DNA of 64,000 nt, from contig CAWFAK010000008.1 in NCBI GenBank assembly GCA_963813715.1, positions 160,001 through 224,000 of the forward strand. The letters are read 5' to 3'. Made by a program: the position numbers and the translations under genes. This DNA is from an uncultured Planctomycetaceae bacterium (GTDB lineage Bacteria; Planctomycetota; Planctomycetia; Planctomycetales; Planctomycetaceae). The stretch's first letter is position 1. Each line of letters opens with the position of its first letter. Positions 26,517-34,195 of this stretch are shown in pieces. The notes under the pieces are model-generated. The model was not told the origin of the DNA, searched no databases, and worked only from the letters and a program-made list of their open reading frames with translations.

Positions 26517-26963
26517 TCAGGCCGCTGTCGATTCGAGCAGTTTTTTCAGATTGGCGGCCGCGTGTCGGGTTTGCTTCCCGACGCCCAGTCGGATGAGCGG
26601 GGAGAACAGTTTTGCCATGACAGTCTTGGTCGTGATTTCGATGGCGTGCAGCGTCTGTGCACCCTCGGGCGCCGGCGCAACGCGCAAGTCCACGGACACG
26701 TCGAACATGGCGTCAAAATACTTGCAGTGGAGCCGCTCGCCCGGAGTGCGTGCGACGATTTGTCCGTCCATCGAGGCTTGCCGGCTGCCTTGCCGATAGA
26801 CGTAGCGCAACTTGTCGCCGGGCGCATTTGGCCCGGAGCCCACCTTCTCCAGGCTCACACACGGAGGCAACCATTTCGCCGTGAGCGGCAGGTCATCGAT
26901 GGCCGCAAAAGCCCGCGCCGGCGTGGTGTGGACGACAACCGAGTGTTCATAACGAATGGGCAT
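26517..26963 (-). CDS. SRPBCC (START/polyketide cyclase) family protein
   Basis: HSVVVHTTPARAFAAIDD...KWLP N-terminus and C-terminal ANLKKLLES helix. Confidence 0.8.
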   Translation of the reverse strand: MPIRYEHSVVVHTTPARAFAAIDDLPLTAKWLPPCVSLEKVGSGPNAPGDKLRYVYRQGSRQASMDGQIVARTPGERLHCKYFDAMFDVSVDLRVAPAPEGAQTLHAIEITTKTVMAKLFSPLIRLGVGKQTRHAAANLKKLLESTAA

Positions 26964-27020
26964 GAAAGACCTCGAAGTAACGTTCCCGAATTCCGCTCGA
27001 ACTCGATCGCCGCGCCCGCC

Positions 27021-27053
27021 CGACGATACTCAGGAGGCGATCTCCGAGCAACG
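27021..27053 (-). promoter_or_regulatory. Promoter motif, copy 1 (upstream of SRPBCC gene)
   Basis: TTGCTC-N17-TATCGT on the minus strand; 29/33 identical to 30622-30654. Confidence 0.65.
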
Positions 27054-27255
27054 AAGCGCCCCGCGACAATTCTCTCCGGGAACGGCGTTCTCCCGTCCCT
27101 CGCCGCCATTCTTCGTGCGCCGCCGACCTTCTTGCATCGTCTGGCCGCCGGGGCCGCGCTTGGCCGACTCACGGCGGACTCGCGGGCCGCGACCACACTC
27201 AAAAGTGAAACGGTCCGGACCGTTTAGAACGATCCGAACCGTGCGGTCGACGAGG

Positions 27256-27332
27256 TGCGGGCGAGAGGAAGCGAACCTGCACTCGCAAAAAGAGGGAACA
27301 GGACCCTCAATCCTGCGCGTGTGCCAATTCCG
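27256..27332 (-). pseudogene. Degenerate tRNA-Leu(GAG) copy lacking the first 10 nt
   Basis: Aligns to 34110-34185 (gggaacaggaccctcaatcctgcgcgt..gccaattccg); T arm mutated. Confidence 0.88.
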
Positions 27333-27877
27333 AATCCTTGGATCGCGGTTTCACGCACGTCCAGATTGTCGTCGCGTGGTGCCGGCTCGTAGTCACGGGT
27401 TGATCGCCGCTCTGCGGATTCCGGGGTGGATCGACTCGCGGGCGGGGCGACGAAATTCCCGATGGTGCGTCGTTCGAAAAACTTTGGAATCGCGACCCAG
27501 TTTTCCCATTTTTTGTTTGAAACTCGCGGCACGCCCCGCAAGAATCGTCTCACCATCTCACCTTGCAAGCCCCATGAAGGTTTGCGCCGCTCGATGTCTG
27601 CATCGGAGCGAGCAGGCGTTGCCTTTGTTGCGGTCAGTACTTCGAGGTCCCGCGCACGGCATCGACGCACGCGGACTTCAACGAGTTAATTACGGATTCG
27701 CTCAAGGTTGAGTTCGAAGGCCATTTGTGCCTTCTGTCGCTGGATGTGCACGTCGATCGGGATTAATACGACCCGAGCTTGACCGTTTACGCGCCGTAAC
27801 ATCGAAAACAGGAGTGCGACACGACACCTGCAGCAAACCGCGTCGATTGACATGGGTGTTTTCAAAAGGGCCCAACA

Positions 27878-29649
27878 ATGCAGAGTCGTCCTCGTGCCTG
27901 GTTTCGTCGTCAATTTCGTTGCAGCTCGGTTTCCAGCCGACGGCGTCGTGGCTGCACCGATACGGCCATCGGAGCGATTGAGCCGTTGGAAGAGCGCACA
28001 TTGCTGACCTGGACGCCATTGGCAAATATGGCTCCCGCCCAAATCTCGACCATGCTGCTCCTGAGCAATGGAACGGTGATGTCTCAGTTTGGAACCGATC
28101 AACCCTCGACCGCGTGGTACTCGCTTACGCCCACGAACGGCAGTTACCAGCAGGGCAAATGGGGAAATCTCGCGTCGATGAGCCTCGGGCGGTTGTTTTA
28201 TCCGTCGAATGTCCTCACGGACGGCCGCGTGCTCGTCGCTGGAGGTGAAGACACGTCGACCGGCAGTGGGCAAAACACAGGTGAGATTTACAATCCGGTG
28301 ACCAATTCGTGGTCCTCGATTTCGGTTTTTCCGCAAAATGCCATCGCGGACGACCCAAGCGAAACACTGCCCAATGGCTCCGTGCTCTTCGGCTTTGACG
28401 GCGGCCCGCAGACCTATATTTACAATCCGTCCAGCAACGCCTGGACGAATGGCGGGACGAAGTTGTACGGCGACTGGAGCGATGAGGAGACTTACCTGAA
28501 ATTGCCGGACGGCAGCATCCTCACGTATGACATCTGGTCGAGCATCGGATCGGGCGTGGCCACCGCGAGCGCTACATTCCCTCAACGAATTCGTGGGTGG
28601 CGGCCGGTACACTTCCCTCATTGCTGAGCACCGACTACGAACTCGGCCCGGCATTCTTATTACAGAATGGGCAAGGGTTCTATATCGGCTCAAACGGCAA
28701 AACAGCCTTGTACAATCCCTCCACCAACTCGTGGAAGGCCGGGCCGTCGATGCCGGACGGAGGCGCGGCCGGGGATGTTCCGGGCGCCGAATTGCCAGAC
28801 GGCAACGTGATTTTTGCCGGCACGGTCCCGAATGCCAACGCGCTGTTTGAATACCACTGGCAGTCGAACACCATCACCCTGCTCAGCACTCCTCCCGAAT
28901 TGACTTCGGCCTTGAACCAGCAAGCTCCATTCGTCTTTCGCATGCTGGATTTGCCTTCGGGGCGGATCCTCTTCACCGCGGATTCCACTCAGCTCTGGCT
29001 CTATGACGAGTCGCAGAATTCCAACGAACCGGCGCCCGTGGTGAAGAGCATCACAAACAACGGCAATGGGCTCTACACGCTCGCCGGGACGGGATTGAAT
29101 GGCATCAGCGAGGGGGCGGGTTATGGCGACGACGCCGAGATGTCGACCAATTACCCGATCATCGAGCTGACCACGCAGTCGAATTCCAACTTCTACTTCG
29201 CGCGCACGTTCAACTGGAGCTCCACAGGTGTCGCGACCGGTCGAACACCCGAAACTGTGAACTTCACTCTTCCCGCCGGCATCCCGAACGGTAACTACGT
29301 CTTGACCGTCATTGCCAGCGGCATTGGCTCCTACGGCACTGATTTCCGCGTGGGGAATGGACCGTCTGTTGTCTCAGCGGCGGCAGGAACGCTGGTCACG
29401 AGCCCGCCGACTCCCGCGGTAAGTGCGTCTGGGTGCCGCTCTGACACCGTCAGCGGTCAACGGCGCTCCGCGGCAGTCGCCAATCCCACAACGAACGAGG
29501 TCGTTGTCAACGCAAATCAAGCCGTCGTCGTCAATCCGGTCTCTTCTGATCCACAACCGGCGGCGCACACTTCCACGTCGACTGCCGCTGACAAACCCGA
29601 GGAGATCGACGCGGTCTTCGCGGCCGGCCCGTTTCCCGACTTGCTCTGA
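27878..29649 (+). CDS. LEPR-XLL extracellular protein with Kelch-like beta-propeller repeats (frameshift near 28590)
   Basis: IEPLEERTLL motif; repeats LTDGRVLVAGG, YNPVTNSW, LPDGNVIF; C-terminal IDAVF. Confidence 0.8.
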
Positions 29650-32840: not shown

Positions 32841-33267
32841 GCCGCGGCTACTTCGCAGTGTTCGTGAAATCCGACCAGTTTCTGCAGGAACTTGTCCGTT
32901 GAGTCGGCCGACCGACGGAACCAGCCGCCAGTGCCACTCGGAGGAAATCAGCGAAATAATGAGGAAAACGATCTTAGGCCGTCCGACTCTGCGCGGCGGA
33001 AATTGGATCCTTGATTTGGATCGCCAGGTCGTGCTCGATGGTTGAAGCGCGGAACGCCGCTCGAAGCGCCACAGGTCCCAGATCGCCACGGCGATTCCGC
33101 CGGCCGCTTGTGTGCTACCAGAGAATCGAACAAGGCCGAAAAGAAACCGCCGCTGTTCCCTTGAAGGACCGTTGCCGTTGTGTTCTAAATTGCGATTCGG
33201 GCCGCAATTGTCGAGTGGTCGTCACGATGTGACGGTGAGCGTTCCTTCAACGGACTGAGGATCTTCT

Positions 33268-33861
33268 TTGCCGAAATCAATCGCGGTTCTTGCCCTCGTT
33301 GCGTTTGCTGTCACCGCTTCGTCGTCGAAGGCGGACACGACCTTTACCGTTAATGGGACGTTTGCCAACGCGAATTCGTTTGGCGGCGGTACGGATGCCT
33401 TAGCAGGGACGGTCACGATCGACACCGTGGGCGGCACGGCGACGGCGTGGGACGTGAACGTTGGGCTCTCGTCGGGCTTATCCAGCTTTTTTGGGACGCC
33501 AGCGCTGACCTTCGATTCTGCGCCCACGACGACGATCCTCTTCTCAGGCGACGTGGAACTTTCGGGCCTGGCCGCGGGTGGGCTGGATGCGGAGTTGAAC
33601 CTCTTTCTCCCGGTTAACACGCTGGTTGGTTATTCCGGTGGCAGCTTGCTTGATAGTTCGTCAGGTCCGCCGACCTCGCAGCTTGTACCGCCCGGCGGCG
33701 AGGGGAGTTACGCCTCGCTCGAAGCCGGCACGTTGACTCCCCCCCTGAGCACGCCTGAACCCGCGACGTTCACACTGCTCGCCACCGGATTCTTGACGTT
33801 CGGCGGCTACGGCCTTTTTCGGCGACGTCGAGCGGCGACGGAAACGACCCCGGTCTGCTGA
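33268..33861 (+). CDS. PEP-CTERM surface protein
   Basis: Signal peptide; C-terminal TPEPATFTLL + TM + RRRR. Confidence 0.88.
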   Translation: MPKSIAVLALVAFAVTASSSKADTTFTVNGTFANANSFGGGTDALAGTVTIDTVGGTATAWDVNVGLSSGLSSFFGTPALTFDSAPTTTILFSGDVELSGLAAGGLDAELNLFLPVNTLVGYSGGSLLDSSSGPPTSQLVPPGGEGSYASLEAGTLTPPLSTPEPATFTLLATGFLTFGGYGLFRRRRAATETTPVC

Positions 33862-34065
33862 CGATTCCTCCGCCGGCGTCTGGATTCGGCTCAGTCGTAG
33901 GGTGTGACCCACTCGCGAAGCGGTCAACGCTGCCACACGAGCCGCCCGCCACAAAGACGGTGTGCCTGCGGATCTTCGCCGCAGCTATCTGCATCGAGCC
34001 GCAGAACGGCTGCCCTTCGCCGTACCGCTTCTTGGTTGCGGGCACCACGGACGGCGCAAACAAAA

Positions 34066-34097
34066 CGGCCCGGAGCGATTGAAGCGTTCCGGGCCGG
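34066..34097 (-). terminator. Intrinsic terminator of tRNA-Leu
   Basis: cggcccgga...tccgggccg stem followed by TTTTGTTT on the minus strand. Confidence 0.7.
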
Positions 34098-34109
34098 GGT
34101 TTTGTAAGT

Positions 34110-34195
34110 TGCGGGCGACAGGGGTCGAACCTGCACTCCCAAAAAAGGGAACAGGACCCTCAATCCTGCGCGTCTGCCAATTCCGCCACGCCCGC
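34110..34195 (-). tRNA. tRNA-Leu(GAG)
   Basis: GCGGGCG/CGCCCGC acceptor stem, GGAATTGGCAGAC D arm, CAGGA-TTGAGGG-TCCTG anticodon arm, long variable arm, GGTTCGACCC T arm; upstream TTGCCG-N16-TATACT. Confidence 0.96.

Follow-up and report, generated by a model that had tools for sequence, protein, structure and literature searches.

Two decayed tRNA-Leu(GAG) fragments share one junction with the tail of an MFS transporter gene in a variable tRNA-adjacent island of an uncultured Planctomycetaceae bacterium

Results

Two decayed tRNA copies lie in a block inserted beside tRNA-Leu(GAG)

We analyzed a 64-kb stretch of DNA (hereafter the window) on contig C8 (666,584 nt) of the genome of an uncultured Planctomycetaceae bacterium, G000, and within it the variable block that lies between a conserved phosphatase-like gene and the 3′ end of tRNA-Leu(GAG) (Table 1). 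Read from the tRNA, this block comprises the tRNA's own terminator, a gene for a small PEP-CTERM-like protein, a hybrid kinase gene, a DinB-family gene, a ~300-bp module (module 2), a Kelch-repeat gene, a second, homologous module (module 3) and an SRPBCC gene; beyond the SRPBCC gene it continues through a 609-aa open reading frame (ORF), an AAA_14/DUF4143 ATPase gene, a tRNA with the anticodon UUA and remnants of an IS4-family transposase. Each module consists of a terminator, a partial copy of tRNA-Leu(GAG) (the fragment) and a sequence joined to that copy (the flank), and all three carry the number of their module.

Table 1. Features of the tRNA-Leu(GAG) locus, in window positions
Feature	Position	Strand	Evidence or remark
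Conserved phosphatase-like gene	19024-19776		
Inserted variable block between phosphatase-like gene and tRNA 3′ end	19779-34109 (14.3 kb)		G010 has ~108 nt here
IS4-family transposase remnants, two frames, distal part of block	20869-22061	minus	ORF family scans
SRPBCC / polyketide-cyclase-like gene, distal border of variable slot	26517-26963	minus	
Terminator 3, diverged, hairpin retained through changes on both sides	27185-27255	minus	Folding
Fragment 3, tRNA-Leu nt 11-86, decayed	27256-27332	minus	BLAST 90.9% over 77 nt, E 2e-23
Flank 3, MFS C-terminus pseudogene (ESLDRGFTHVQIVVAWCRLVVTG*) and short 3′ sequence	27333-27475	plus	G006 match, E 9e-11
Kelch-repeat gene, N-terminal ..LEERTLL.. 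motif	27878-29649	plus	Split by frameshift near 28570
Terminator 2, perfect 13-bp hairpin	29766-29826	minus	91% identical to terminator 1 over 54 nt
Fragment 2, tRNA-Leu nt 11-86, decayed	29827-29901	minus	BLAST 85.5% over 76 nt, E 2e-17
Flank 2, MFS C-terminus pseudogene (ESLDRG.. then, frame shifted, AQIVPFVACSPLVAAG)	29902-30040	plus	15/16 aa identical to G006 MFS
DinB-family gene	30062-30559	minus	In place in G002 and soil strains
Hybrid PAS-PAS-HisKA-HATPase-receiver kinase	30856-32840	plus	Split by 1-nt gap near 32406; single 661-aa ORF in G002
Small secreted protein, PEP-CTERM-like C-terminus	33268-33861	plus	Family match weak
Terminator 1, the tRNA's own (hairpin and U run)	34050-34109	minus	Orthologous to G002 terminator down to 34059
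Intact tRNA-Leu(GAG)	34110-34195	minus	ARAGORN; Rfam tRNA 49.7 bits; allele comparison

The intact tRNA-Leu(GAG) carries an allele that we call type A (acceptor GCGGGCG/CGCCCGC, T stem GCAGG/CCTGT). When all 87 tRNAs of the genome were compared by BLAST with the whole genome, no copies of tRNA-Leu(GAG) were found beyond fragments 2 and 3. Both fragments lie downstream of the intact gene on its own strand, lack nt 1-10, end at an identical base and adjoin one common 20-nt junction; this junction and the anticodon stem-loop (18 nt) are the same in the two copies, whereas the remainder of each has diverged. The fragments differ from tRNA-Leu(GAG) by 9-15%, with damage at conserved positions, and neither obtains a tRNA score from Rfam: in the T loop of fragment 3 the normally invariant A58 is changed (..TTCGACC.. 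in the intact gene, ..TTCGCTT.. in the fragment), and fragment 2 has one mismatch in the anticodon stem and one deletion. At diagnostic sites, fragment 2 is of type B (GAAGG, CGTCCGC, as in the tRNA of the genome G002) at three of three, and fragment 3 is of type A at two of three. ARAGORN, BLAST and hairpin folding thus confirm what a preliminary description of this DNA had observed, namely two degenerate same-strand tRNA copies that have lost their first 10 nt and are followed by terminators.

The three terminators fold into hairpins followed by a U run, with energies of -23.9, -31.7 and -37.0 kcal/mol and z scores of -3.5 to -4.5. The two modules now appear to be inert pseudogene pieces in which at most the hairpins still act as terminators. 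Terminator 3 is ~40% diverged from terminators 1 and 2, yet both arms of its stem have changed in such a way that a long perfect hairpin remains, which suggests that selection still maintains it as a terminator. Rfam matches to 'Pxr' at 29722-29881 were rejected, being far under the gathering score and simply the terminator hairpin.

Both fragments adjoin the tail of an MFS transporter gene

The flanks are homologous to each other (76% over 72 nt), as the preliminary description had reported, and extend further than the ~110 bp given there, to ~140 nt. We searched flank 3 against 11 other genomes of the genus and found its sole match outside G000 in G006 (E 9e-11), where it falls on the 3′ end of an MFS_1 gene of 438 aa (Pfam 6.5e-57). 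In seven orthologous MFS genes the flanks align with the final codons and the region of the stop codon, and in this alignment the two flanks agree at 81 of 106 aligned nt; flank 3 translates as ESLDRGFTHVQIVVAWCRLVVTG*, where the G006 protein reads ..ELLDRGFTHAQIVPFVACCPLVAAG... Conversely, a tblastn search of the window with the C-terminal 70 aa of the G006 protein ranks the two flanks at the top (E 8e-6 and 2e-5), the third match having an E value of 0.15. The flanks are nearest to each other (76%), then to the MFS gene of G006 (70-72%), with the other six orthologs at 56-66%; the MFS copy of G000 itself, which lies on a separate contig (C17:917458-918749), is 62% identical. By these alignments the ~110-bp flank is the pseudogenised last ~25-35 codons of an MFS gene, not the arm of a mobile element.

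Both flanks share a derived 1-nt deletion that is absent from all seven intact MFS genes, and the tail was accordingly a broken pseudogene already before the two copies separated. Because both flanks carry this deletion, the matching breakpoints are identical by descent, and therefore no recombinase acting in the D arm is needed. Microhomology at the joint between tRNA nt 11 and the MFS tail amounts to at most 2 nt (CG). The preliminary description had taken the flank for part of a cassette or element whose repeated breakpoint was made by a recombinase, with crossover homology reaching into the D arm; the MFS origin and the shared deletion point instead to one inherited junction with a neighboring gene, which explains the breakpoint.

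Neither flank nor junction has another copy in G000 outside this locus. An exact 20-mer search for the junction in two public collections (genome_contigs and metagenome_contigs) returned nothing but one and the same unrelated record. A BLAST search of flank 2 against 200 genomes of the family gave matches in 17, of just 20-50 nt (E 3.7e-5 to 0.009), which we judged to be chance. The search of genome and relatives that the preliminary description had proposed for the flank has therefore yielded only the two copies described here and, within the genus, intact MFS genes.

The block varies among genomes of the genus

G010 matches window positions 7722-19778 at 78%, then has ~108 nt, then the tRNA, and so presents an empty site for the whole block; because it has only ~108 nt there, we take all of 19779-34109 to be inserted DNA. 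The same interval measures ~1.7 kb in G011 and ~3.5 kb in G008. Together with differences in content between close strains, this bears out the view that the 3′ side of tRNA-Leu(GAG) is an insertion hot spot.

G002, the closest relative, is collinear with the window at 89-95% except in 19781-34058. It keeps the order SRPBCC-DinB-kinase-tRNA and has no fragment, flank or Kelch gene: ~35 nt stand in place of 27062-30037, which in G000 holds both modules and the Kelch gene, and ~45 nt stand in place of 32848-34058, the 1.2-kb stretch containing the PEP-CTERM-like gene, which G002 lacks and soil strains have. A search of these short G002 spacers for remnants of the G000 insertions found nothing significant. 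To judge from this comparison, the actual variable blocks are the two modules with the Kelch gene and, separately, the PEP-CTERM gene. The units of the preliminary description were bounded by the fragments, spanned 2.6 and 4.3 kb and held between one and three genes each, none of them a mobility gene; homology between them is limited to the ~300-bp module, and their cargo is unrelated. The G002 gaps do not match these units, and since G002 keeps the kinase and DinB genes without modules, the 4.3-kb 'cassette' (PEP-CTERM, kinase, DinB) is not the unit of variation.

The order of genes beside the tRNA also differs within the genus. In the sister species G009 and G003 the end of an intact MFS gene lies 2.4 and 3.1 kb, respectively, from the 3′ end of tRNA-Leu(GAG), the two genes being convergent. 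By contrast, the phosphatase-like gene lies beside the tRNA in G000, G002, G010, G011 and G008. An MR_MLE-RibF tree of eight genomes, in which three of the five inner branches are strongly supported, reads ((G011,G008),((G000,G002),(G010,(G006,(G003,G009))))). The phosphatase-next-to-tRNA order is probably ancestral, and a single inversion leads from it to the MFS-next-to-tRNA order of G003 and G009; the sequence behind the MFS gene of G000 (C17:918913-920654) is found in G003 ~250 nt away from where the phosphatase-like gene ends. The idea that the MFS-tail pseudogene mediated the G003 inversion found no support, there being no module remnant at the inversion joint.

At the protein level, the MFS-to-tRNA spacers of G003, G009, G006, G011 and G008 match the island only in a dispersed repeat (20264-20866) and in short weak matches. 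Pfam searches of 16 ORFs from the G003 and G009 spacers and neighboring DNA likewise found nothing in common with the G000 cargo; what they did identify, upstream of the MFS gene, was a GNAT acetyltransferase gene and one of the sigma-70 type. Variation extends to the DNA 5′ of the tRNA (window 34196-34392 compared with L022, L026, L041 and L039): the distance from the tRNA promoter region to the MR_MLE gene is 2.3-10 kb in G003, G009, G006 and G004, and ~0.2 kb in G000, G002, G008, G010 and G011.

Soil strains differ in one part of the block

Parts of the stretch occur in 20 runs from 19 studies, and we compared four of these, all from soil, with the window (one, X3, is an RNA library, and its contigs are not counted as evidence of expression). 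Over long pieces the contigs of these runs are ~0-3% different from the window. They cover 26000-27085 (to 27241 in X2) and 30049-35000, with the PEP-CTERM stretch contiguous with kinase and tRNA, and leave 27250-29770 uncovered in all four runs; such missing cover counts as absence only where contigs continue differently or bridge the gap.

Both situations arise. A 5.2-kb (5,173 nt) contig of X2 runs through DinB, flank 2, fragment 2 and terminator 2 to 29774, continues with 1,275 other letters, of which 205 resemble 26225-26429, and then resumes from 27241 down to 26000. The swap between 29774 and 27241 thus begins just beyond terminator 2 and stops just before terminator 3, so that it adjoins the repeats and does not lie within them. 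Contigs of X1 and X4 turn, at 27085 and 30049, into at least 1.28 kb unlike the window. On these contigs, the slot from DinB to SRPBCC appears hypervariable among strains and the tRNA-proximal unit stable. The preliminary description had proposed to compare the number and content of cassettes across strains: content varies between the DinB and SRPBCC genes, and the proximal unit (PEP-CTERM-kinase-DinB-tRNA) is constant in all four runs.

Integrase matches lie elsewhere in the genome

A six-frame search of the genome gave 11 matches to Phage_integrase (PF00589), and a search for Resolvase gave 8; none of them lies on the contig that carries the window. Neither the six-frame family search nor ORF scans (family scans covering 19024-36536) detected an integrase remnant in 19779-34109, and the distal limit of the block, around 19779, showed no terminal tRNA remnant. 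The earlier statement that no recombinase lies in the window holds for integrases and resolvases, and for the entire contig; IS4 transposase remnants do lie in the window. Among 10 genus genomes whose tRNA-Leu(GAG) neighborhood was examined, nine show no integrase on the contig that holds the tRNA or less than 100 kb away from it; in the tenth, G007, the nearest match is weak (34 bits) and lies 19.7 kb away. Integrases next to the flank, another proposal of the preliminary description, are likewise lacking: none stands beside tRNA-Leu(GAG) in these 10 genomes, and elsewhere the flank is the end of intact MFS genes.

Ordinary islands occur in G000 at Ala, Arg and Pro tRNAs, with repeats of 45-49 nt at 96-100% identity and integrase matches beside the Ala and Arg tRNAs. 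Two further loci carry tRNA repeats. The tRNA-Ser(CGA) of G000 (C7:351873-351960) has a 69-nt copy of its 3′ part (nt 20-88, 98.6%) 26.5 kb downstream, at C7:378432-378500; the interval carries secretin/T2SS-F, efflux and ankyrin genes, with no recombinase family in the 14 ORFs scanned, and is thus a second long integrase-less tRNA repeat, reaching the D loop of a long-arm tRNA. In G011, tRNA-Leu(CAG) (L058:737-822) bounds a 16.5-kb integrase island with an exact 39-nt repeat of the 5′ half of the tRNA (G011:C2:1142247-1142285), the rarer configuration in which the 5′ part is the displaced fragment.

Other features of the block

The Kelch gene has a GC content of 56-59%, compared with 62-67% in core DNA. 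Single-base frameshifts interrupt the Kelch gene (~28570), the kinase gene (~32406) and the MFS gene of G000 on C17, whose homologs are single ORFs of 587 aa (the intact Kelch homolog, P0002), 661 aa and 438 aa; the three frameshifts are either assembly indel errors or true decay. A 38-nt motif occurs at 27021-27058 and 30621-30658 (84% alike), where it precedes the start codons of the SRPBCC and DinB genes, respectively, by ~60 nt. Its first 15 nt do not recur elsewhere in the G000 genome, and G002 has the motif as well; two readings are possible, a common operator or promoter and one more vestige of duplication.

The tRNA with anticodon UUA (ochre-suppressor type; 22792-22863, minus strand; Rfam 61.3 bits) has an odd T loop and is unique among the 87 tRNAs. 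Its counterpart in G002, listed with L021:493-566 (plus strand), has the anticodon UCA and a canonical T arm. This tRNA ends a 2-kb block (20874-22864) that is inverted between G000 and G002. A dispersed repeat, present in the window at 20281-20860 and 24603-24838, has at least 20 partial copies in the genome (for example C5:350348-351033 and C8:146080-146613). Its two parts are contiguous elsewhere and 3.7 kb apart in the window, where the IS4 remnants, the UUA tRNA and the AAA_14/DUF4143 ATPase gene lie between them; the repeat looks like an IS4-type element with passenger genes, accompanied by deleted copies resembling miniature inverted-repeat transposable elements. Related sequence lies downstream of tRNA-Leu(GAG) in G003, G006 and G009 too.

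Discussion

We consider it probable, though well short of secure, that the two modules are the inherited scar of a duplication or an excised circle, lying inside an otherwise ordinary, lively tRNA-adjacent island. The two tRNA copies would be two descendants of one composite scar, which on the plus strand would read terminator, tRNA-Leu(GAG) from nt 86 to nt 11, and then, head to tail, the last ~25-35 codons of the MFS gene. Such a join would form on tandem duplication, or on excision as a circle, of a segment with one end within the MFS gene and the other within the tRNA gene; this would require the two genes to be convergent neighbors, as they are in G003 and G009. The resulting ~300-bp module would next have been copied, whether through more unequal exchange or by inserting again at tRNA-Leu(GAG), where its 75 nt and terminator offer homology, and would have come to rest in G000 within a 14.3-kb stack of foreign, fast-changing DNA. 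The genes between the copies (Kelch on one side; DinB, kinase and PEP-CTERM on the other) would be unrelated cargo gained, lost and replaced since.

The junction has the form expected of such an event: in G003 and G009 the order is MFS gene, 2.4-3.1 kb, convergent tRNA, and in the modules tRNA nt 11 is joined to the first codon of the tail in the sense direction. From the orientations, neither an inversion nor joining in the alternative gene order is expected to yield this junction. Junctions left by tandem duplications or circles in bacterial chromosomes share with ours the head-to-tail join of a relative's neighbors, microhomology that is minimal or lacking, and copies identical by descent; Ayan and colleagues reportedly described in 2020 a tRNA-gene example of tandem duplication. 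A plain tandem duplication differs from what is seen here, where unit interiors are unshared, the array does not end in the intact MFS gene and the host has the other gene order. Because microhomology at the joint is at most 2 nt, we regard the join as illegitimate and not as a recombinase crossover; because it forms only in the derived order, with the MFS gene next to the tRNA, it probably arose in another lineage and reached G000 by transfer. In agreement with transfer, the flank has its closest intact counterpart in the MFS gene of G006, and the tRNA of G000 is type A like that of the G003/G006/G009 clade, whereas its sister G002 has type B. Three of the steps we infer: the duplication or circle, the transfer of the module out of a different lineage, and the route to its second copy. 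What we commit to is more limited: one illegitimate head-to-tail junction, copied by homology-driven processes, has left two now inert scars in a hot spot.

Several observations weigh against this account. The cargo of the two units is without homology, where a simple duplication predicts otherwise; one plain tandem duplication, which the preliminary description had named as a competing explanation, accounts for the head-to-tail junction but not for the unrelated cargo. The fragments carry different natural tRNA alleles (fragment 2 being type B at 3/3 sites, fragment 3 type A at 2/3), which suggests a past exchange of sequence between each fragment and a functional tRNA gene, the outcome to be expected of successive integrations. 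No sampled genome unites all the ingredients, since the three terminators are all of the G000/G002 kind and the MFS tail is nearest to G006, and the genomes with the MFS gene beside the tRNA (G003, G009) lack a terminator of the G000/G002 type. G000 has the ancestral gene order, with G002, G008, G010 and G011; therefore the junction did not form in place, and a transfer step must be assumed. The intact tRNA of G000 is type A and that of G002 type B, yet the DNA on both sides is G002-like, a pattern for which we have no explanation. Further, the genes of the proximal unit are common to G002, which has no module, the edges of the X2 swap beside terminators 2 and 3 also fit cassette exchange, and no module remnant lies at the G003 inversion joint.

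One alternative is that two ordinary integrase islands of one family inserted in tandem and later lost their integrases, the MFS tail having been acquired once by aberrant excision and then travelling in the end of the element. We think this unlikely, if worth weighing. The accounts of Islander (PMC4383910) and of Prochlorococcus (bioRxiv 10.1101/2020.12.28.424599) document islands in tandem as well as partial tRNAs that earlier integrations left behind, and the low GC across the Kelch unit, the integrase-less stretch bounded by tRNA-Ser(CGA) in G000 and the true integrase island at tRNA-Leu(CAG) of G011 all agree with such a history. It is difficult to reconcile with units of 2.6 and 4.3 kb that hold one to three genes and no mobility genes, with the failure of our searches to find an integrase remnant anywhere in 19779-34109, with G002 having the proximal-unit genes and no scar, and with an identity block that begins in the D stem, outside the sites in the PMC4383910 footnote.

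The subsites used in this comparison are those of that table footnote, which lists the anticodon loop, the T loop and the T/acceptor junction; Islander also requires an integrase for each island (PMC4383910). Like the islands described there, our locus has an intact tRNA, several downstream same-strand 3′ fragments with foreign DNA between them, and an empty site in a relative. It departs from that description in having no integrase per unit (0 of 11 PF00589 matches on C8), in fragments that start at nt 11 in the D stem, which is no listed subsite, and in fragments that are 9-15% diverged and fused to the tail of a chromosomal gene, while the nearest relative has the proximal genes without a fragment (PMC4383910). 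The comparison of empty sites is similarly divided: the whole block is empty in G010, and the gaps in G002 differ from the fragment-bounded units. In the account of Prochlorococcus tycheposons, newer arrivals push older ones inward and older events leave partial tRNAs (bioRxiv 10.1101/2020.12.28.424599). Partial tRNAs, degenerate remnants and small strain-variable cargo are common to those islands and ours; there, however, some cells have integrase-bearing elements and excision has been demonstrated, whereas here we found no such element, integrase or excised form and the repeated end is a host-gene pseudogene (bioRxiv 10.1101/2020.12.28.424599). The 14.3-kb block fits the general picture of successive tRNA-adjacent arrivals; its two modules are not canonical att scars.

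The preliminary description proposed an active, integron-like array, in which integrase-less cassettes with an attP-like module inserted serially at tRNA-Leu(GAG) by means of a recombinase acting in trans. This now appears rather improbable to us. Insertions recur at this locus, which is empty in G010; the units are homologous in the ~300-bp module alone and enclose single-gene cargo without relation to each other; the tRNA alleles of the two fragments differ; the cargo between terminators 2 and 3 has been replaced in one soil strain, with other sequence in the slot in two more runs; the anticodon stem-loop and the 20-nt junction are identical in otherwise diverged copies; and 11 integrase-family matches lie elsewhere in the genome. 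All of this favors serial insertion. The supposed attachment module, however, turned up at this one locus only in the genomes and collections searched, and its flank is the tail of a chromosomal-gene pseudogene, inherited already broken by both copies. The fragments are decayed at conserved positions, the proximal 'cassette' is fixed in G002 and in four of four soil runs (in G002 without any module), and no integrase is linked to the tRNA in nine of 10 genus genomes, G007 having the weak match 19.7 kb away.

The locus can also be compared with two kinds of array. Integron arrays consist of short units of one or a few promoterless-looking genes with repeated sites between them, a form that the block shares, and have an integrase, an attI site and folded sites of the attC type. 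Here there is no integron integrase, attI or attC-type site, just two decayed repeats and a constant proximal unit, and the recurrence of a site with other cargo that marks integrons was not found, the searches having yielded the two copies and, apart from them, intact MFS genes. In cis-mobilizable elements and accretion arrays of integrative and conjugative or mobilizable elements (ICE-IME), the att sites belong to an integrase-bearing family in the same or related strains. The G000 block resembles them in having integrase-less units with att-like repeats stacked at the 3′ end of a tRNA, and differs in that no integrase-bearing family with the module was found in the genome, the 200 family genomes, the genus genomes or the two collections.

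A related idea, which we rate as improbable on the present evidence, is that the ~300-bp module is a portable, host-made attachment site: circles of the form tail-cargo-terminator-tRNA 3′ part would be released from such arrays and re-insert at the tRNA-Leu(GAG) of other strains. Plain homologous recombination could bring this about, or else an integrase encoded at an unlinked site and acting on the perfectly conserved anticodon stem-loop.

Very unlikely, in our judgment, is a tandem duplication in place in the direct ancestor of G000, followed by local turnover and by an inversion that removed the MFS gene, with no transfer. It would explain the head-to-tail form of the junction, and it gains from the single inversion that relates the two gene orders (in G003, the relevant DNA lies ~250 nt from the phosphatase-like gene) and from the size of one unit, 2.57 kb, which approximates the distance of 2.6 kb that separates the MFS tail and tRNA nt 11 in G009. 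But the MFS-tRNA order is limited to G003 and G009, the other arrangement being that of the outgroups (G011, G008), of G010 and of G000/G002, so that two inversions would be needed; nor would one expect a joint in G003 free of module remnants, a flank closer to the MFS gene of G006 (70-72%) than to the host's own copy (62%), or wholly unrelated cargo. Finally, it is extremely unlikely that misassembly created or misplaced the repeats, for although the assembly has several single-base frameshifts and the four soil runs do not independently confirm 27242-29773, the copies (76-91% alike over ~300 nt) are too diverged to collapse or misjoin, and the independent 5.2-kb X2 contig has DinB, flank 2, fragment 2 and terminator 2 in the same order.

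An inherited head-to-tail junction of this kind provides an example of how the same breakpoint can appear twice at a tRNA gene without a site-specific recombinase, and a caution for programs that find islands, since a displaced tRNA fragment is not always an att site. Recognizing the flank as the tail of a neighboring gene explains the unusual breakpoint in the D arm without new enzymology. Were the portable-site reading true, which the evidence does not favor, host-derived modules could serve as attachment sites for gene exchange, and single-gene cargo could pass among soil strains in an integron-like manner without an integron. For the genus itself, the analysis maps a 14-kb hot spot at tRNA-Leu(GAG) of these soil bacteria, in which surface (Kelch, PEP-CTERM) and sensing genes turn over between close strains.

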